This document shows, piece after piece, positions 6,914 to 18,446 of a stretch of 29,924 nucleotides of DNA. Below the pieces are notes generated by a model, which worked only from the letters and a program-made list of their open reading frames with translations, did not search any database and was not told the DNA's origin. This stretch comes from a virus (taxonomy: Duplodnaviria; Heunggongvirae; Uroviricota; Caudoviricetes), in the IMG/VR virus record IMGVR_UViG_2541047891_000002; one strand, written 5' to 3'. The translations under genes were made by a program, and so were the position numbers. Each line of letters begins with the position of its first letter. Position 1 is the stretch's first letter.

Positions 6914-6965
6914 ACGCCCTCAATATTCTGTTGTGACGATAAAACGTTCATTACAGGAGGGCAAC
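6914..6965 (+). promoter_or_regulatory. Candidate middle promoter region (Pm-equivalent, expected to be Mor-dependent)
   Basis: Position only: between the early terminator and the first middle-operon gene; contains TGACGATAAAAC; no element verified. Confidence 0.3.
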
Positions 6966-7526
6966 ATGCCTGAGTTTTCCCCTGCATTCCTTCATTCGCT
7001 GAATTTTGTTATACGGCCTGATGTTGAAGGTGGTTACGTTAATGATCCCACTGACCGTGGCGGCGAAACCAAATACGGCATTTCTGACCGTCGCGACGGC
7101 GTTATTGATGGCAAAACCGATGTTAACGGTGACGGGAAGCCTGATACCCGTATTAAAGATTTAACCCACGAGCAGGCGGCGCAAATCTACTGGCGTGATT
7201 ACTGGCTGGCGGCAAAGTGTAACGAATGGCCTGATGGTGTTTCCTTATTCGTCTTTGATGCTGCCGTTCAGCACGGTGTTAAACGCGCAATTCAAATCCT
7301 CCAGGCGGCAGCAGGTGTTGATGATGATGGCATCGTCGGCAAAAACACCCGCGCAGCCGTTCTGCGTGCCGACACTGACTGGCTGCTGTTGCAGTGTTTC
7401 CTGCGTCGTTCCCGCTATTACGCAGGGATTATCAAATCCAGTGCCTCGCAGGGGAAATATCTGAACGGCTGGTTTAACCGCCTGGATCTGCTCGCCAGCG
7501 TCTGCCGGGAGGTTCTGCATGGGTAA
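6966..7526 (+). CDS. GH108-family muramidase with C-terminal peptidoglycan-binding domain
   Basis: Track ORF 6933-7526; start ATG 6966 with AGGAGG 5 nt upstream; N-terminal EGGYVNDPTDRGGETKYGI motif typical of glycoside hydrolase family 108; C-terminal DGIVGKNTRAAV resembles PG_binding_3. Confidence 0.75.
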   Translation: MPEFSPAFLHSLNFVIRPDVEGGYVNDPTDRGGETKYGISDRRDGVIDGKTDVNGDGKPDTRIKDLTHEQAAQIYWRDYWLAAKCNEWPDGVSLFVFDAAVQHGVKRAIQILQAAAGVDDDGIVGKNTRAAVLRADTDWLLLQCFLRRSRYYAGIIKSSASQGKYLNGWFNRLDLLASVCREVLHG

Positions 7527-7737: not shown

Positions 7738-8110
7738 GCGTTTCTGTTATTTGTTACCAAATTGTCTGCCGGTCATGTTGCTGGCGCTGATTCTGATTAT
7801 CAGCGTGTTTTATGGTTTGCGGGCGGTGCTGTTCTGGAATGCTGCCGTTTTCAGTGTGGCGCTGTGCTTTACCGGCACTATTTTTGATGATCTGTCCCGG
7901 ACAGGAAAAATCCGACGTTATGCTTCTATTAATGCCATTGATTTTCTTGGTGGCCTCGTCGGGTTAAGTCTTTCGGCTATTGCAACCGGGCTTTTAGAAG
8001 AAGTGCATCAGTTCACGATTTATGCTTTATCTGGCTTCTGTAGCATATGGTTTTGCTTTCGCCTCCATATCTGTCTGCGACGTTCAGTACCGTCTGGCGC
8101 GGAGGCATGA
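7730..8110 (+). CDS. Multi-pass membrane protein (126 aa), holin-like candidate
   Basis: At least three hydrophobic helices (VMLLALILIISVFYGL, AAVFSVALCFTGTIF, FLGGLVGLSLSAIATGLL); start overlaps previous stop. Confidence 0.5.
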   Translation: MFKRFCYLLPNCLPVMLLALILIISVFYGLRAVLFWNAAVFSVALCFTGTIFDDLSRTGKIRRYASINAIDFLGGLVGLSLSAIATGLLEEVHQFTIYALSGFCSIWFCFRLHICLRRSVPSGAEA

Positions 8111-8242: not shown

Positions 8243-8653
8243 ATGACAAATCAGCAGGATTTATTTGAACATGATCCGGCTGTAAGCCAGTTAATGGATC
8301 ATATCGACAATATACCGGCTCCTGAGCAGGAGGCCCGCTGGCCCCGCGCGCTGGTTGAGCTGGTTGACGTTCTGGAAACAGAACTGAAACGTCAGGGCGT
8401 GGATGATGCACGGAGCATAGCCCGTAAACAGGTGATGTCCTTATCATGGTTCCTGGGGGGACGGCAGTATTACATCCCCCGGGGTGATGCACTTCTGGCA
8501 GCGTTGCGGGATGATCTGATTTACTGCCAGTTTAACGGTCGGAACATAGAGGAGCTGCGGCGTGAACATCGTCTGTCACAACCGCAGATTTACAAGATTA
8601 TTGCCCGGCAGAGAAAACTTCATTCACGGCGACATCAGCCCGATTTATTCTGA
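8243..8653 (+). CDS. C: C, activator of late transcription (Mor/C family)
   Basis: 136 aa; C-terminal block YYIPRGDALLAALRDDLIYCQFNGRNIEELRREHRLSQPQIYKIIARQRK paralogous to Mor; directly upstream of lys as in Mu. Confidence 0.85.
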   Translation: MTNQQDLFEHDPAVSQLMDHIDNIPAPEQEARWPRALVELVDVLETELKRQGVDDARSIARKQVMSLSWFLGGRQYYIPRGDALLAALRDDLIYCQFNGRNIEELRREHRLSQPQIYKIIARQRKLHSRRHQPDLF

Positions 8654-8686
8654 GTAACAGCAATCAATCGGTGCAGGCCGGTTGTG

Positions 8687-8755
8687 TTAATTAATAATAA
8701 CCCCGCCTGCAAATTCCCCTGAGTTACCCTCCTTTTATTACCGAAGGAGGGTTTC
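8687..8755 (+). promoter_or_regulatory. Candidate C-dependent late promoter region for lys
   Basis: 12-mer ATAACCCCGCCT at 8697-8708 is repeated exactly at 15903-15914 upstream of I; both followed within ~10-15 bp by TCCCC; also a near-dyad TTAATTAATAATAA at 8687-8700. Confidence 0.4.
8726..8752 (+). promoter_or_regulatory. Hairpin sequestering the lys ribosome-binding site
   Basis: ACCCTCCTT (8726-8734) pairs with AAGGAGGGT (8744-8752) around a 9-nt loop; the right arm contains the AGGAGG Shine-Dalgarno 5 nt before the lys ATG. Confidence 0.45.
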
Positions 8756-9184
8756 ATGAACGATTTTAAAAAACGTCTCCCCCGCATCATCAGAACACTT
8801 GCCATCGTGGTACTGGCGGCATGTGGTGGCTGGCAGTTGTCCGGCGATGGTGATTCATCGCTGGTTTCTGTTCAGTACCTTCCATACACAGACCAGCACG
8901 GCGAACTGACAGTTTGCCTTAACCATCACGGTCCTGATATTCAGCAACGCCCTTACAGCTATGGTGAATGCATCATGCTGTTGAAAGCAGATTTGAAGCC
9001 TGTTTATGACACGTTAAATACCCATCTGAACAGGCCACTGACAGAGGAACAAAAAAATGCACTGGCGGTGTTTATGTTCAGCGCCGGTTCTGGTGCTGTG
9101 CCCGCTCCCCGTAATAATCAGCTGCTGAATGATGATGTGTTACCGGTGCCGGGATTAATGCCGGGTATGTCGTCAGGGCTGTAA
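8756..9184 (+). CDS. lys: Lysozyme-fold endolysin homologue with SAR-type N-terminus, possibly degenerate
   Basis: 142 aa; N-terminus MNDFKKRLPRIIRTLAIVVLAACGGWQL (two Lys then a weakly hydrophobic Gly/Ala-rich segment); core YLPYTDQHGELTVCLNHHG aligns to the Y.PY.D.....T.C.GH block of SAR lysozymes; see findings for missing Glu. Confidence 0.7.
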   Translation: MNDFKKRLPRIIRTLAIVVLAACGGWQLSGDGDSSLVSVQYLPYTDQHGELTVCLNHHGPDIQQRPYSYGECIMLLKADLKPVYDTLNTHLNRPLTEEQKNALAVFMFSAGSGAVPAPRNNQLLNDDVLPVPGLMPGMSSGL

Positions 9185-9196
9185 ACAGGAGAGCGT

Positions 9197-9496
9197 GTGG
9201 ATATTTATTCAGTGCTGACCTACTCGATAGGCAGTGGCAGCACCATTGGTGGCATTTTGTGGTGGGCGGTGAGGCGTACATTTGCCAGCACGGAACGTGT
9301 GGAGCAAATCGAAAGCCGTTTAACCGCGCTTGAAACGAAGTGCGAAAACATGCCCAGTGCACAGGATTTACATGCTGTCCGGTTACAGACCGCAGAAACC
9401 AATGGTGAAGTGAAAGCGATGAACCGGCACATACAGGTGCTGACCCATCAACTGGAGCTTTTGCTCGAAAAGGCGCTCGGAGAGAACAACAAATGA
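9197..9496 (+). CDS. Membrane-anchored coiled-coil protein (i-spanin-like or releasin-like)
   Basis: GTG start 9197 with CAGGAGAG upstream; N-terminal hydrophobic helix SIGSGSTIGGILWWAV followed by a helical/coiled-coil region (EQIESRLTALETKCE ... HQLELLLEKAL). Confidence 0.5.
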   Translation: MDIYSVLTYSIGSGSTIGGILWWAVRRTFASTERVEQIESRLTALETKCENMPSAQDLHAVRLQTAETNGEVKAMNRHIQVLTHQLELLLEKALGENNK

Positions 9497-14001: not shown

Positions 14002-15301
14002 TCTGGCGTATGCCGCACGCCTCCCGCCAAAGGAGGCTGTCGCGTATTTCCGCGCCAAAGGCTACAACATCACCTGGAACTGGTACGAACAACTGGCAGA
14101 CGCGCACGCCCGTGCCTTTACCGTTGCCAAAGCTGCCCGGATGGATGTCCTGACCACAATCCGTGAGGAAGTGGAGCGGGCTGTCAGTGAGGGTATCACC
14201 CGTGAGGAATTTACCCGCACACTGGCTCCCCGGTTGCAAAAGCTCGGATGGTGGGGAAAACAAATCATTGTGGATGCAGAGGGAAACGCGAAGGAAATCG
14301 AACTGGGCAGTCCGCGTCGTCTGGCAACCATTTATAACGTCAATACCCGTACAGCGTACGGGGCGGGACGTTATGCACAGATGATGAATACCGCAGACCT
14401 GTATCCGTACTGGCAGTATGTCGCCGTTATGGACAGCAGAACGCGCCCGGAACATGCCCGGCTGCATAATATGATTTTCCGGTATGACGATATTTTCTGG
14501 CAGACACATTACCCGCCCAATGGCTGGAGCTGTCGCTGCCGCGTTCGTGCGATATCTGCGACCCGAATGAAAGAACTGGGATTACAGGTCAGCTATGGTG
14601 CTTCATTCATGGATACCCGCGAAGTGGAGGCCGGCACGGATGAAAGCACAGGAGAGATTTTCCGCACATCGTCAACCACGTTTGACAACGGTCGGGTAAA
14701 AATGACGCCGGACGTTGGCTGGTCATATAACCCCGGTTCGGCGGCATTCGGTACTGATCAGGCGCTGATTCGAAAACTGGTGGAAGTTCGTGACGCGCAG
14801 CTGCGTGAGCAGGTTGTACAAACGCTGAATAACAGCCGGGAGCGCCAGCTTGCTTTTTCCCTGTGGCTTAATCGTCTGGCGAAATCACGTCACGCCGGGC
14901 GTGAGATCCGGGCACTGGGTTTTATGACGGAATCGGTAGCTGAAGCCGTACATCAGCGCACCGGGAATATGCCAGCCCGTTTACTGGTGATGAATGGAGA
15001 AAGTCTGGCTACCGCTGCTGATGCTGCCCTGAAAGCAGAGGATTTACAGCGTCTGCCGTCTCTGATGGCAGAACCACAGGCGGTATTGTGGGACAGAAAA
15101 AATCACCAGCTGCTGTACGTTGTGGCAACCCGTGACGGCACGGCCCAAATTGTGGTCAGAACATCACAGACAGTCGGCAGGCAGAATGACCGGGCGGATG
15201 TGCTGGTCAGTATCAGCCGCGTATCTGCACAGTCGCTTGAAGCCGCGATTGCTGACGGGATGATTGACGTACTGGAAGGGCATGTGGAGGTGAATAAGTG
15301 A
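13982..15301 (+). CDS. F: Head morphogenesis protein F (Mu F / SPP1 gp7 family)
   Basis: Track ORF 13946-15301; preferred start ATG 13982 with GGGGGCG upstream; contains RTRPEHARLHN ... PPNGWSCRCR block typical of the Mu F family. Confidence 0.85.
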   Translation: MPQQTIDLAYAARLPPKEAVAYFRAKGYNITWNWYEQLADAHARAFTVAKAARMDVLTTIREEVERAVSEGITREEFTRTLAPRLQKLGWWGKQIIVDAEGNAKEIELGSPRRLATIYNVNTRTAYGAGRYAQMMNTADLYPYWQYVAVMDSRTRPEHARLHNMIFRYDDIFWQTHYPPNGWSCRCRVRAISATRMKELGLQVSYGASFMDTREVEAGTDESTGEIFRTSSTTFDNGRVKMTPDVGWSYNPGSAAFGTDQALIRKLVEVRDAQLREQVVQTLNNSRERQLAFSLWLNRLAKSRHAGREIRALGFMTESVAEAVHQRTGNMPARLLVMNGESLATAADAALKAEDLQRLPSLMAEPQAVLWDRKNHQLLYVVATRDGTAQIVVRTSQTVGRQNDRADVLVSISRVSAQSLEAAIADGMIDVLEGHVEVNK

Positions 15302-15768
15302 GTCTTGATATGAACGTTGCCGTGGATGTGCGACGTATCCGGCTTGCTCTTGATGATCTGGCAACGGTAACGCATGACGGATATGTGCCACGTGTGATGG
15401 CTGCGGCATTGCTGTCGTCTTCTGAACAGGCTTTTGAACGGCAGGCAGACCCGGACACGGGCCAGAGCTGGGAGTCATGGAGTGACCCGTGGCTGGCATG
15501 GCGTCAGGAGCATGGTTTTGTTCCGGGTAGCATTCTTACCCTGCATGGCGATCTGGCCCGCAGCATCACTTCCGCTTACGGCCCGGATTATGCCCTGATT
15601 GGCTCACCAAAAGTTTACGCTGCTATTCATCAGTGGGGCGGTAAGCCTGATATGCCCCCCGGTCCGGCAGGTGTTCCTGCACGTCCTTATATGGGGCTGG
15701 ATAAGAGCGGTGAGCAGGAAATTTATGATGCCATCAGAAAACGCGTAAGCGCCGCTCTGACGCAGTAA
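15298..15768 (+). CDS. G: Virion morphogenesis protein G
   Basis: 156 aa; GTG 15298 with GGAGG 7 nt upstream, overlapping the F stop; position between F and I as in Mu. Confidence 0.8.
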   Translation: MSLDMNVAVDVRRIRLALDDLATVTHDGYVPRVMAAALLSSSEQAFERQADPDTGQSWESWSDPWLAWRQEHGFVPGSILTLHGDLARSITSAYGPDYALIGSPKVYAAIHQWGGKPDMPPGPAGVPARPYMGLDKSGEQEIYDAIRKRVSAALTQ

Positions 15769-15954
15769 CCAGATACAGAGATAAAATCACGCGATAAAGA
15801 ATTTTTGAAGGTTCTGTGGCGTTTTTGAAGGGGTTTTGAAGGGGGTAGCGTCATGCATTTCCCTTCCCCTTTATCTTTCTCCTACAGAATTACTAAAACT
15901 GGATAACCCCGCCTTTTCTCCCGTTCCCCGCACACTGGCTACTCACAAATCACG
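15769..15954 (+). promoter_or_regulatory. G-I intergenic region: candidate late promoter for I and positional equivalent of the Mu strong gyrase site
   Basis: 186 bp without a credible ORF; three direct repeats of TTTTGAAGG; inverted repeat GAAGGG / CCCTTC; 12-mer ATAACCCCGCCT (15903-15914) identical to the one upstream of lys. Confidence 0.5.
15802..15845 (+). repeat. Three direct repeats TTTTGAAGG(G)
   Basis: Copies at 15802-15811, 15822-15833 and 15834-15845 (spacing 20 and 12 bp), read directly from the sequence. Confidence 0.8.
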
Positions 15955-17055
15955 ATGAGCAGGCCGGACATGAAAAAACACGCGATTGGTATTGCTGCGC
16001 TGGGTGCGCTGTCCATTGACGATGACGGCTGGTGCCAGCTATTGCCTGCCGGTTATTTCAGTGCCCGTGACGGTCGCCCGTTTGATGTAACAACTGGTCA
16101 GGGCTGGTTCATCGACGGAGAAATTGCCGGACGCCTGATTGAAGGTATCCGCGCACTTAACCAGGACGTGCTGATTGATTACGAGCATAACCAGCTGCGT
16201 AAGGACAAAGGATTACCCCCGGAACAACTGGTCGCGGCTGGCTGGTTTAACGCCGATGAAATGCAGTGGCGTGAAGGTGAAGGGTTATTTATCCACCCAC
16301 GCTGGACAGCGGCAGCCCAGCAGCGCATCGATGACGGTGAATTTGGTTATCTCTCTGCGGTTTTTCCGTATGACACCGCCACTGGTGCGGTACTGCAAAT
16401 CCGCCTTGCTGCGCTGACCAATGATCCCGGGGCCACCGGCATGAAAAAGCTGACCGCACTGGCGGCAGACCTTCCCGACATCCTTCAACAGGAGAACAAA
16501 CCCATGAATGAAACGCTGCGCAAGCTGCTTGCGCGTCTTGGGGTGACTGTCCCCGAAAATGCAGACATCACCGATGAACAGGCAACAGCGGCACTGACCG
16601 CGCTGGACACGCTGGAAAGTAACGCCGGGAAAGTGGCGGCGTTGTCTGCCGAACTGGAAAAGGCACAGAAAGCCGCCGTTGACCTGACGAAATACGTCCC
16701 GGTGGAAAGCTACAACGCCCTGCGTGATGAACTGGCACAGGCGACTGCACAAAGCGCCACAGCCAGCCTGAGCGCCGTTCTGGACAAGGCGGAACAGGAA
16801 GGCCGCATTTTCAAAAGCGAACGTACCTATCTGGAACAGCTTGGCGGTCAGATTGGCGTGGCGGCACTGTCGGCACAGCTTGAGAAAAAACAGCCCATCG
16901 CTGCGTTATCTGCCATGCAGACCACCACAGCGAAAATCCCGTCGCTGGAAAAACCGGCGGTGGCGGTGCTGTCTGCTGATGAACAGGCAGCAGTGAAGGC
17001 GCTCGGCATTACTGAGGCTGAGTATCTGAAAATGAAACAGGAACAAGAAAAATGA
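15955..17055 (+). CDS. I: Head protease / scaffold protein I (scaffold Z expected from an internal start)
   Basis: 366 aa; N-terminal half protease-like, C-terminal half Ala/Glu/Leu/Gln-rich helical scaffold-like sequence; directly upstream of major capsid gene. Confidence 0.85.
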   Translation: MSRPDMKKHAIGIAALGALSIDDDGWCQLLPAGYFSARDGRPFDVTTGQGWFIDGEIAGRLIEGIRALNQDVLIDYEHNQLRKDKGLPPEQLVAAGWFNADEMQWREGEGLFIHPRWTAAAQQRIDDGEFGYLSAVFPYDTATGAVLQIRLAALTNDPGATGMKKLTALAADLPDILQQENKPMNETLRKLLARLGVTVPENADITDEQATAALTALDTLESNAGKVAALSAELEKAQKAAVDLTKYVPVESYNALRDELAQATAQSATASLSAVLDKAEQEGRIFKSERTYLEQLGGQIGVAALSAQLEKKQPIAALSAMQTTTAKIPSLEKPAVAVLSADEQAAVKALGITEAEYLKMKQEQEK

Positions 17056-17969
17056 TTGTCACCCCGGCATCCATTAAAGCCCTGATGACCTCCTGGCGTA
17101 AGGATTTTCAGGGCGGTCTTGAAGACGCCCCGTCGCAGTACAGCAAAATTGCAATGGTGGTGAACTCCTCATCCCGCACTAATACCTATGGCTGGCTGGG
17201 TAAATTCCCTGCCATGAAAGAATGGGTGGGTAAGCGAACCATTCAGCAAATGGCAGCGCATGGCTACTCCATCGCCAATAAAACGTTTGAAGGCACCGTG
17301 GGCGTAAGCCGTGATGACTTCGAGGATGACAATCTGGGTATTTATGCGCCGATGTTTCAGGAGATGGGCCGTTCTGCGGCAGTTCAGCCGGATGAGCTGA
17401 TTTTTAAACTTCTGAAAGATGGCTTTACCCAGCCCTGCTATGACGGTCAGAACTTCTTCGACAAGGAGCATCCGGTATATCCGAATGTGGACGGCACGGG
17501 CAGCGCGGTTAATACCTCCAACATCGTTGAGCAGGACAGCTTCAGCGGTCTGCCATTCTATCTGCTGGACTGCTCCCGCGCAGTCAAACCGCTGATTTTC
17601 CAGGAGCGCCGCAAACCGGAACTGGTCGCACGTACCCGTATCGATGACGACCACGTTTTTATGGATAACGAGTTCCTGTTTGGTGCCAGCGCCCGCCGTG
17701 CTGCCGGTTACGGCTTCTGGCAGATGGCTGTCGCGGTAAAAGGCGATCTGACGCTGGATAACCTCTGGAAGGGCTGGCAACTGATGCGTTCTTTTGAAGG
17801 TGATGGCGGTAAGAAGCTGGGCCTGAAGCCGACGCATATCGTTGTACCGGTCGGACTGGAAAAATCCGCAGAGCAACTGCTTAACCGTGAGCTGTTCGCG
17901 GATGGCAATACCACCGTCTCTAACGAGATGAAGGGTAAGCTGCAACTGGTTGTCGCTGACTACCTGTAA
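17052..17969 (+). CDS. T: Major capsid protein T
   Basis: 305 aa; ATGA overlap with I; followed by a strong terminator; sequence matches recalled Mu T. Confidence 0.88.
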   Translation: MIVTPASIKALMTSWRKDFQGGLEDAPSQYSKIAMVVNSSSRTNTYGWLGKFPAMKEWVGKRTIQQMAAHGYSIANKTFEGTVGVSRDDFEDDNLGIYAPMFQEMGRSAAVQPDELIFKLLKDGFTQPCYDGQNFFDKEHPVYPNVDGTGSAVNTSNIVEQDSFSGLPFYLLDCSRAVKPLIFQERRKPELVARTRIDDDHVFMDNEFLFGASARRAAGYGFWQMAVAVKGDLTLDNLWKGWQLMRSFEGDGGKKLGLKPTHIVVPVGLEKSAEQLLNRELFADGNTTVSNEMKGKLQLVVADYL

Positions 17970-17977
17970 CCGTCGTT

Positions 17978-18001
17978 AAAAGGCGGTTCAGGCCGCCTTT
18001 T
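17978..18001 (+). terminator. Rho-independent terminator after the major capsid gene
   Basis: AAAAGGCGG (17978-17986) / CCGCCTTTT (17993-18001) perfect 9-bp stem with 6-nt loop and T-run in the 3' arm. Confidence 0.75.
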
Positions 18002-18035
18002 AACCTGATTTAAAGGAAAAGGAGGAGCATGTGTT

Positions 18036-18446
18036 ATGTCAGGCACTTCGCTTAATTCACAACGGCTGGACACTTCTCGCATCACTTGCACGGCGATTAT
18101 TAAATGTCTTCGCCCGGTCTACCGCCGCGCCGGTATCGCCTTTACGCGTGGCGAAAACACAGTGGAAGTCACCGAAGAACAACTGGCGATCATCCGTGCC
18201 GACAGCGTGTTGTCTGTTGTATCGACAACGGCAGCAGAAACGCTCGCTGAGGCTGGGGGGCTGGACGTTCTGGGTGTGGGCGATCTGAACGCCCGTATCC
18301 GTGCGACCGTTGCCGGTCTGGATCAGGCAAACCCGGAACACTTTACCGCAGGGGGAGAACCCAAAGTGAAAGCGGTCAGTGCGGTGCTGGGGGAAAACGT
18401 CACTGCGGCACAAATCAAAGCAGCACTAGCTGAGGCACAAGCATGA
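18036..18446 (+). CDS. Mu gp35-like head-associated protein (hypothetical)
   Basis: 136 aa; AAGGAGGAG ~10 nt upstream of ATG 18036; position between T and J. Confidence 0.55.
   Translation: MSGTSLNSQRLDTSRITCTAIIKCLRPVYRRAGIAFTRGENTVEVTEEQLAIIRADSVLSVVSTTAAETLAEAGGLDVLGVGDLNARIRATVAGLDQANPEHFTAGGEPKVKAVSAVLGENVTAAQIKAALAEAQA

Follow-up and report, generated by a model that had tools for sequence, protein, structure and literature searches.

The gap between genes G and I of a Mu-type prophage as a probable composite of gyrase site, terminator-like hairpin and late promoter

What are three direct repeats, an inverted repeat and a promoter-like 12-mer doing in the gap between genes G and I of a Mu-type prophage? 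The gap lies near the middle of a 29,924-nucleotide stretch of viral DNA (IMG/VR record IMGVR_UViG_2541047891_000002), which is referred to here as the window, and an earlier note made from its letters had singled out these features. We conclude that the gap is very probably a composite control region of about 200 bp derived from the Mu lineage, in which a gyrase site is combined with a hairpin and U-rich tail and with a C-dependent late promoter, PI. This reading is carried by the homology to Mu, the conserved cleavage core, the geometry of the repeats, the location at the prophage centre, a promoter motif that recurs elsewhere in the window and a Mor/C-family gene. The gap is explained by known biology, as a Mu-type centre with gyrase site, terminator-like hairpin and late promoter, and what goes beyond the Mu annotation is limited to a right-arm block that is variant and apparently exchanged, and to the wide conservation of a 20+11 layout.

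The window, a Mu-type prophage, matches Mu coordinates 1835-31974 by alignment, and most of its late genes outside a divergent patch at about 15300-16200 are 93-100% identical to those of Mu. The stretch searched around the gap, 15700-16000, is 100% identical to a prophage of E. coli TUM9757 and 99.7% identical to a prophage of E. coli SE11. The TUM9757 prophage (L078, 4280-40735) is 36,456 bp long and is inserted in yeaE, and its ends are of the Mu type and are flanked by a 5-bp target duplication.

The length of the gap depends on where I begins. The first in-frame ATG of I, at 15955, opens the longest reading frame and would give a gap of 15769-15954, the 186 bp described before, but it is in frame with I solely through a 1-nt insertion relative to Mu. 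Because the ATG at 15970 is the counterpart both of the annotated Mu start and of the start called by NCBI PGAP in TUM9757, comparison with these relatives makes it most likely the true start; the gap would then be 201 bp, and the figure of 186 bp holds if I starts at 15955. No conserved ORF is present in the gap when its short ORFs are checked against the alignment with relatives: those that occur are of only 20-43 codons, cross alignment indels and are without conservation, in keeping with the view that the gap has no credible ORF. An Rfam search of 15600-16100 gave no match up to E = 1. The gene annotated as '31.5' in D108 is probably not a real gene, as its ATG rests on a single A>G change that is absent from Mu and the window.

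The gap aligns end to end with Mu, D108 and SfMu at about 85% identity, and Yersinia Mu-like phages can also be aligned along the whole of it. In the Mu record, G is followed in order by a gyrase cut site, a predicted terminator, the late promoter PI and I (Table 1). The earlier note had taken the gap as the positional equivalent of this Mu interval, with its late promoter and strong gyrase site (SGS), and the base-for-base alignment with Mu, D108 and SfMu bears this out. Relative to Mu the most diverged stretch is 15800-15899, with 55% identity, and the functionally defined pieces of the gap are kept despite the divergence.

Table 1. Features in and around the G-I gap of the window, with the Mu features used for comparison. 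Right-arm junctions are given as distances in bp from the first base of the predicted stagger.
Feature	Position	Strand	Identity or basis
Gene G	end 15768	+	84.7% identity to Mu
Putative SGS left arm	15722-15784 (-63 to -1 from stagger)	+	extent of the 130-bp gyrase motif and Mu alignment
Core region	15769-15800		59% identity to Mu
Gyrase cleavage core ATAAAATCA	15781-15789	+	9/9 identical to Mu 17872-17880
Repeat block	15801-15847		62% identity to Mu
Putative right-arm unit 1, TTTTTGAAGG	15802-15811	+	T/G junction +21.5; aligns with Mu TTTTTAAAAC (junction +20.5)
GC-rich spacer TTCTGTGGCG	15812-15821	+	between units 1 and 2
Putative right-arm unit 2, TTTTTGAAGG	15822-15831	+	junction +41.5, as in Mu
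Putative right-arm unit 3, GTTTTGAAGG then GGGTA	15833-15847	+	junction +52.5; Mu +53.5
Hairpin and U-rich tail	15826-15880	+	5' arm, units 2 and 3; 3' arm, CCCTTCCCCTTT; tail, TTTATCTTTCT
Stretch after the repeat block	15848-15885		45% identity to Mu
Promoter	15886-15957		71% identity to Mu
Predicted C-activator binding region of PI	15892-15914	+	within the equivalent of the Mu PI promoter, 17977-18043
Right half-site ATAACCCC	15903-15910	+	inside the 12-mer ATAACCCCGCCT, 15903-15914
-10-like hexamer CACACT of PI	15931-15936	+	starts 28 nt after the A of ATAACCCC; no -35
Gene I (head protease/scaffold)	15970-17055	+	likely start, matches the Mu annotation and the PGAP call in TUM9757; 93-98% nucleotide identity to Mu
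Mu gyrase cut site (GenBank)	Mu 17879/17880
Mu predicted terminator (GenBank)	Mu 17908-17953
Mu PI (GenBank)	Mu 17977-18043

The cleavage core is kept in full. In cryoEM of gyrase bound to Mu SGS DNA, the scissile bonds lie between A and A in the top strand and at 5'-T/GATTT in the bottom strand, and the 4-bp stagger of Mu is therefore AATC at Mu 17876-17879, the 'cut site' of the GenBank record being the bottom-strand cut. The 133-bp Mu SGS fragment of the Topo-Seq work is centred in accordance with this placement. Since both scissile bonds fall inside ATAAAATCA, the same 9-mer in Mu and the window, the stagger in the window is predicted to be AATC at 15785-15788, with cuts at 15784/15785 on the top strand and 15788/15789 on the bottom strand; the bases directly 3' of the 9-mer diverge from Mu. 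Alignment to the mapped gyrase cleavage site of Mu had been put forward as a way of checking the locus, and it returns a core that is identical at all nine positions and lies at 48.6% of the length of the TUM9757 prophage, compared with 48.7% for the core in Mu. The putative left arm spans the 3' end of G and the first bases past its stop codon. The strength of the gyrase site in the window should not be assumed from Mu, because identity to Mu falls to 59% in the flank of the core, 62% in the repeat block and 45% in 15848-15885.

The three repeats lie to the right of the core. They had been placed at 15802, 15822 and 15834, and all three are present, but the first two coordinates are one base off: the 9-mer TTTTGAAGG is found on the + strand at 15803, 15823 and 15834, with a fourth copy at 17792. 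These four matches in the window compare with 0.37 expected, and four or more were reached in 0 of 100 shuffles. Extended to 10-mers, the three in the gap read TTTTTGAAGG (15802 and 15822) and GTTTTGAAGG (15833), spaced by 20 and then 11 bp. When junctions are counted from the first base of the stagger and taken at the T-to-purine step, those of the window are within 1 bp of those of Mu, and the repeats share alignment columns with Mu TTTTTAAAAC, TTTTTAAACC and TATTTAACGG. The GC-rich spacer TTCTGTGGCG between the first two units also has counterparts by alignment, namely GCGCCACGGGA in Mu, GCGCCACGGCG in Erwinia and TGCTGTGGCG in a second family of E. coli Mu-like prophages described below.

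The corresponding part of Mu has an established role. [quoted passage not shown] Phased anisotropic bending signals and repeat motifs have been described in the right arm, which is wrapped around one GyrA C-terminal domain and becomes the T-segment; in the cryoEM structure the AT repeats of this arm are turned towards that domain and the GC repeats point outward. Because the Mu right arm is known in this way as a wrapped, phased AT/GC arm, the repeats in the window are best read as the phased AT/GC units of an SGS right arm, and the protein that binds them is most likely gyrase itself. The earlier suggestion that the repeats could be protein-binding sites is supported in this form by their match to the right-arm units of the SGS.

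Measures of phasing give modest support for a right arm, at a level close to that in Mu. The AT periodicity of 10.75-11 bp in the right arm ranks in the top 0.9-1.5% of sliding windows here and in the top 0.35-0.7% in Mu. Genome-wide Topo-Seq in E. coli has yielded a gyrase cleavage motif of 130 bp with periodic arms, and comparison of the right arm with this consensus in register, using the consensus string and not a weight matrix, gives a z of 2.4-2.75 for the window and 2.4-2.5 for Mu; such an in-register score is only about the top 1%, and many coding positions score higher. A whole-site gyrase scan with the 133-bp Topo-Seq consensus string, in which positions in the arms counted by AT/GC class and those in the centre by identity of the base, was discarded because it did not rank the Mu SGS at the top in Mu.

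The inverted repeat GAAGGG-17 bp-CCCTTC is confirmed, with the two halves, perfect complements 17 bp apart, at 15838-15843 and 15861-15866. The RNA of 15826-15873 folds into a two-tier stem of -20.6 kcal/mol, with a z of -1.16 relative to shuffles that alone is not beyond chance; its 3' arm is CCCUUCCCCUUU and the tail that follows, UUUAUCUUUCU, is interrupted. At the same place Mu has a hairpin of -19.8 kcal/mol (z -4.07), predicted by TransTermHP as a terminator at 17908-17953. A rule-based promoter and terminator scan of 15500-16200 returned nothing, a result that is uninformative for a large-loop hairpin and an activator-dependent promoter. With moderate support, which includes its agreement in position with the predicted Mu terminator, the hairpin probably ends the late transcript that arrives from upstream (lys to G) by intrinsic termination. 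In 1994 Zha, Zhao and Howe reportedly mapped the end of the Mu lys transcript to the G-I interval. This role of the hairpin, as predicted terminator of the upstream late transcript, was not named in the earlier note.

The overlap of repeats and hairpin raises the alternative that the repeats are only the G-rich 5' arm of an operon-boundary terminator and that there is no functional gyrase site here. Units 2 and 3 do pair with CCCTTCCCCTTT in the minimum-energy fold, and a G-run/C-run hairpin directly after unit 3 is also seen in Mu and in the prophages of an Enterobacteriaceae genome (L012), Vibrio (L015) and Erwinia (L048). However, unit 1 and the spacer are conserved and yet lie outside the hairpin, the core is conserved at nine of nine positions, and the hairpin of the window is statistically ordinary. 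Moreover, the second E. coli family has a separate canonical terminator of its own after the repeat block, and in a further gene context, viral contig L091, about 22 nt separate the end of the block from the I start codon and no terminator is present. We regard a terminator arm as the whole explanation as very unlikely, and continue to read the repeats as a gyrase right arm, two units of which would also form part of a hairpin.

The third component is the late promoter. The 12-mer ATAACCCCGCCT, previously proposed as a promoter motif, lies within the equivalent of the Mu PI promoter, and a second exact copy is found at 8697, upstream of the first late gene at the equivalent of Plys; with one mismatch allowed there are three matches, compared with 0.08 expected. 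The ATAACCCC inside it is invariant across eight aligned Mu-type phages and is common to Mu PI and PP, with a variant, ATAATCCC, in Mu Plys. On the + strand of the window it occurs at four sites, 8697 (Plys), 15903 (PI), 25250 (PP) and 14727 (inside F), of which the first lies directly after the C gene and the last is also conserved in the Mu coding sequence. Mu late promoters have a -10 hexamer and no -35, and the activator C binds a 16-bp imperfect dyad centred at -43.5, a geometry with which ATAACCCC at 15903-15910 agrees. The spacing of 28 nt between ATAACCCC and the -10-like hexamer of PI is the same for TACCCT at Plys (8725) and TATCCT at PP (25278), as well as for the hexamers of the Mu late promoters, and this shared spacing at Plys and PP also favours the promoter reading of the 12-mer. 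In the window, ATAACCCC followed 20 nt later by YAYNCT, a pattern derived after viewing its three sites, matches only the equivalents of Plys, PI and PP.

A full sigma-70 promoter was not found by the scan of 15500-16200, as expected of an activator-dependent promoter. The left half of the C-site dyad is poor, reading CTAA where TTAT is ideal. A Mor/C-family gene is present at 8243-8653, with a match to Pfam Mor (PF08765) at E 2e-32. The 12-mer ATAACCCCGCCT is part of the predicted C-activator site of PI, and the I transcript is predicted to start near 15942-15945; in Mu, the start of the PI transcript has been mapped by S1 nuclease.

A broader comparison shows how far the repeats extend among Mu-like prophages. 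At 66 loci encoding relatives of the I protease, with one genome per species, the gap before I was read in each. A recurring element, composed of TTTRAAC, a GC-rich spacer of about 10 bp, TTTTTRAA(C/G)GG, TTTRAA and then GGGGTA, is carried by Mu, the window, the second E. coli family, Erwinia, Vibrio, Rodentibacter, an Enterobacteriaceae genome and Pusillimonas. Built from nine of these, a model of the element that uses sequence alone has one strong match each in the window, in Mu and in 13 related prophage loci. Every match is on the strand of the genes and lies between G (or F) and I, and the model also finds elements outside its training set in Xenorhabdus, Halomonas, Alishewanella, Rheinheimera and Alkalimonas. 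In 11 of 17 loci the junctions are 20 and then 11 bp apart, and almost every distance falls at 10-12 or 20-21 bp. As recognised by its sequence, the three-unit element is present in Mu-like prophages of many Gammaproteobacteria, and the concern that related phages might lack the repeats is answered by how widespread homologous three-unit elements are.

Related arrangements are seen beyond the matches of the model. Prophages of Pseudomonas and related genera, Halomonas and Thalassospira carry CGTTAGA, CGTTAAA or CTCTTAAA repeats with 11-bp spacing in the same gap. A Mu-like prophage within an Stx2c phage (L081) has no significant model match on the gene strand; inspected by eye, the G-I gap of this prophage shows the units TTTTCTAACC, TATTTAACGG and GCTTTAAAATC spaced by 11-12 bp. 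Phased hexamer pairs occur at 10.0 per kb in the gaps and 2.4 per kb in control segments of the same loci, a difference of about fourfold. In Rheinheimera, Alishewanella and Alkalimonas the element adjoins G and an extra gene lies between it and I, a KAP-family NTPase gene in one of this group. Because the element stays by G when an extra gene intervenes before I, it is not part of the I promoter.

These comparisons bear on whether the repeats could be a functionless by-product of chance or slippage in a fast-evolving spacer, as might be supposed of the interval most diverged from Mu (55% identity in 15800-15899). With four copies of the 9-mer TTTTGAAGG where 0.37 are expected, homologous units at the same spacing in many lineages and the excess of phased hexamer pairs in gaps over controls, such an origin is highly unlikely.

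They also bear on whether a protein other than gyrase binds the repeats in a sequence-specific manner and organises the prophage centre or regulates the late operons, the candidates being a factor encoded by the phage, or a response regulator of the host of the kind whose sites are direct repeats 10-11 bp apart. Direct repeats with 11-bp spacing are typical of some regulator sites. Conservation is at the level of sequence, beyond an AT/GC pattern: the unit TTTRAAC, a spacer of CGCCACGGCG or CTGTGGCG, the 20+11 spacing and a single orientation are kept among prophages whose I proteins are 30-50% identical, and a nearly identical block (44/46) is found in three otherwise unrelated gene contexts. 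Nonetheless, the Mu arm is already explained by gyrase footprinting, deletion analysis and cryoEM; the units drift freely (TTTAAA, TTTGAA, GTTAGA, CTTAAA) with their phasing kept, for which indirect readout is a better fit than base-specific recognition; and no candidate protein co-varies with the element. A dedicated non-gyrase protein is distinctly unlikely, and gyrase is retained as the most likely protein to bind the repeats.

The block shared between head modules adds a further relationship. Window positions 15802-15847 are identical at 44 of 46 bases to a block in the second E. coli Mu-like prophage family, which is present in about 46 complete E. coli genomes. This second family has a length of 34,327 bp and ends of the Mu type, and its block lies between F and I at 45.9% of that length; its I protease is only 30% identical to that of the window, and the flanks of the block are without nucleotide similarity. 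The exact 29-mer core of the block is present in 18 viral contigs, of which 16 have the second-family arrangement, one has that of the window and one, L091, shows a third context, in the order Mor-family gene, block, I and major head gene T. When one genome per species was searched for exact copies of the repeat block, none was found; the block is present in E. coli genomes and viral contigs.

The near-identity of the block across unrelated flanks points to recent lateral exchange rather than constraint by gyrase alone, because Mu, in the same host, has a block just 62% identical to that of the window. A more speculative extension, which we consider unlikely but worth setting out, is that the three-unit TTTRAA element is a discrete and laterally exchangeable module of transposable phages, beyond a bendable gyrase arm. 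In one version the window block may have moved recently between co-resident Mu-like prophages, and in another a further factor, or a particular surface of the GyrA C-terminal domain, may recognise its bases specifically. All three units have changed from A to G in concert, which could also tune the site to the E. coli gyrase consensus of a T-run followed by a G-run.

Returning to the composite control region, the scenario that we favour is that host gyrase would cleave within ATAAAATCA at the stagger 15785-15788, and that the DNA to the right of the cut would wrap one GyrA C-terminal domain and then serve as the T-segment. The three TTTTTGAAGG units alternate with G-rich stretches, have their junctions near +21, +41 and +52, and would act as helically phased wrap signals with AT inward and GC outward. 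Supercoiling at the centre of Mu brings the prophage ends together for replicative transposition, and after induction processive supercoiling at the centre of this prophage would help to join its ends for transpososome assembly and replicative transposition. The hairpin and U-rich tail, with units 2 and 3 as the 5' arm, would probably end the late transcript coming from the lys end, and PI, with ATAACCCC at about -40, CACACT as -10 and no -35, would restart transcription into I. Cleavage by gyrase, the strength of the site, its effect on replication, termination at the hairpin and the start of the I transcript are predictions of this scenario.

The Mu SGS is the reference substrate for gyrase wrapping and supercoiling and a model for the joining of distant prophage ends. 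The window provides a natural variant of it, with the Mu core and phasing and with units of TTTGAA-GGGG in place of TTTAAA, a unit sequence that is also found in the second E. coli Mu-like family. Comparison of the variants could separate what gyrase needs of a right arm (phasing and AT/GC alternation) from incidental features. The 20+11 layout also offers a simple sequence marker for the centre of a Mu-like prophage and the adjoining cargo slot.

Several known systems can be set beside the gap. The anti-CRISPR and cargo slot of Pseudomonas Mu-like phages occupies the same G-I interval and holds small ORFs, whereas the gap in the window has only the non-conserved ORFs of 20-43 codons. The predicted terminator after G in Mu is likewise a hairpin, of about -20 kcal/mol and in the equivalent position, with the conserved T-rich TTTATCTT after it, but its stem is CGGGATT/AATCCCG where that of the window is GAAGGGG/CCCCTTC, in another register to the repeats. 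Because the two stems differ in bases and register, it is structure rather than sequence that appears to be maintained.

With the Mu late promoters PI, Plys, PP and Pmom, PI of the window shares ATAACCCC at the same distance from a weak -10, the lack of a -35 and a T-run after the C site, and with Mu PI it shares the conserved start region CTCACAAA and a Mor/C-family activator encoded upstream. It differs from Mu PI in the -10 hexamer, CACACT in the window and CAAACT in Mu, in the bases after ATAACCCC, which are GCCT as in the Plys of the window and AGAT in Mu, and in 3-nt and 1-nt indels that separate the two.

The closest likeness is to the Mu SGS, with which the locus has in common the G-I position at about 48.6% of the length, an identical 9-bp core, a left arm in the end of G, and three T/A-rich right-arm units that lie at the same distances from the cut and alternate with G/C-rich stretches. 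The units of the window read TTTTTGAAGG where those of Mu read TTTTTAAA(A/C)C or TATTTAACGG, and they have a TG step followed by longer G runs, whereas Mu has TTTAAA with a TA step. The T-runs of the window, at +17 to +21, +37 to +41 and +49 to +52, are within 0-2 bp of the AT-rich positions of the Topo-Seq consensus right arm, +19 to +22, +39 to +41 and +49 to +53, and the G-runs after them match its G-rich stretches. That consensus arm reads TTTGGGGGCCTTTAAGGGGG, a T-run and then a G-run, and in this respect it is nearer to TTTTGAAGGGGG of the window than to the units of Mu.

The window is closely related to Mu on either side of G and the start of I (95-100% identity), but the segment between these flanks, at positions 15300-16200, is a diverged patch in which the coding parts are 81-91% identical to Mu per 100 bp and the lowest value, 55%, falls at 15800-15899. 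The position of the patch between such similar flanks suggests that recombination brought in G, the G-I gap and the start of I from another Mu-type lineage. A second type of departure is seen at 6931-7518, 7860-8104 and 8651-9444, where there is no nucleotide similarity to Mu. In the identical prophage of E. coli TUM9757, the gene immediately following Mor is annotated as a GH108 glycoside hydrolase, and a different glycoside hydrolase follows C; from these annotations, together with the dissimilar stretches, we conclude that the window's lysis genes are replaced relative to those of Mu.

The start of gene I is likely to be at 15970. The earlier note placed it at 15955, ending the gap at 15954, but that ATG shares the I reading frame only through a 1-nt insertion relative to Mu and lacks an upstream Shine-Dalgarno sequence; an ORF caller choosing the longest frame would append five spurious codons (15955-15969). 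In D108, gene '31.5' (L003 775-903) is annotated as a 42-codon ORF spanning the gyrase site. Its ATG is created by a single A to G change in CATAAAATC and is missing in both Mu and the window, and '31.5' is probably not a gene.

We also note that the 133-bp 'Mu SGS' fragment used in Topo-Seq and in vitro work carries a C in place of the G found at position 17881 of the Mu reference; the corresponding window position, 15790, is also a C. The change may correspond to one of Pato's up-mutations (nuB). [quoted passage not shown] No -10-like hexamer is found there at the spacing seen for the three late promoters, and this copy is probably just part of the coding sequence.

Viral contig L091 (IMGVR_UViG_2778261544_000011) shows the repeat block in a third setting, with an exact copy of its 29-mer core at 1995-2023. 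As read from 2.5 kb of the 24-kb contig, a Mor-family gene is followed by the block, the I protease and gpT, the major head gene. About 22 nt separate the end of the block from the I start codon, and this interval contains neither a terminator nor a promoter. A different arrangement is present in the Mu-like prophage within an Stx2c phage (LC727881.1), whose G-I gap (L081 2741-2915) contains the units TTTTCTAACC, TATTTAACGG and GCTTTAAAATC spaced by 11-12 bp with no long spacer, unlike the 20+11 layout of the window-type element; R1, our sequence-only model of the three-unit element, gives no significant match to L081 on the gene strand.

Extra genes preceding I in Rheinheimera and Alishewanella Mu-like prophages, and representatives of a second E. 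coli Mu-like prophage family.
Feature	Locus and coordinates	Description
Extra gene before I	L028 1099-2367	422-aa KAP-family P-loop NTPase (PF07693)
Extra gene before I	L030 1410-2351	No Pfam match
Extra gene before I	L025 1749-2366	No Pfam match
Extra gene before I	L016 1500-2372	No Pfam match
Second-family prophage	L080 8142-42468	E. coli PSS-15, NZ_AP027709.1
Second-family prophage	L010/L079	E. coli STEC388

About 46 of 5,426 complete E. coli genomes carry a second Mu-like prophage family, with at most four matching places per genome. These prophages are 34.3 kb long with Mu-type ends (99% and 87% identical to those of Mu), a Mu-like early region and com/mom, whereas the head module is divergent: F is 254 aa, G has moved downstream of a gp436-family gene, and the I proteases of this family and the window share 30% identity. 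The annotation shows a single Mor-family gene, so the late genes may be activated in another way than in Mu.

Mu-like prophages of Rheinheimera and Alishewanella contain an additional gene between the gyrase-type element and I. This position looks like a cargo slot, the equivalent of the anti-CRISPR slot in Pseudomonas Mu-like phages.
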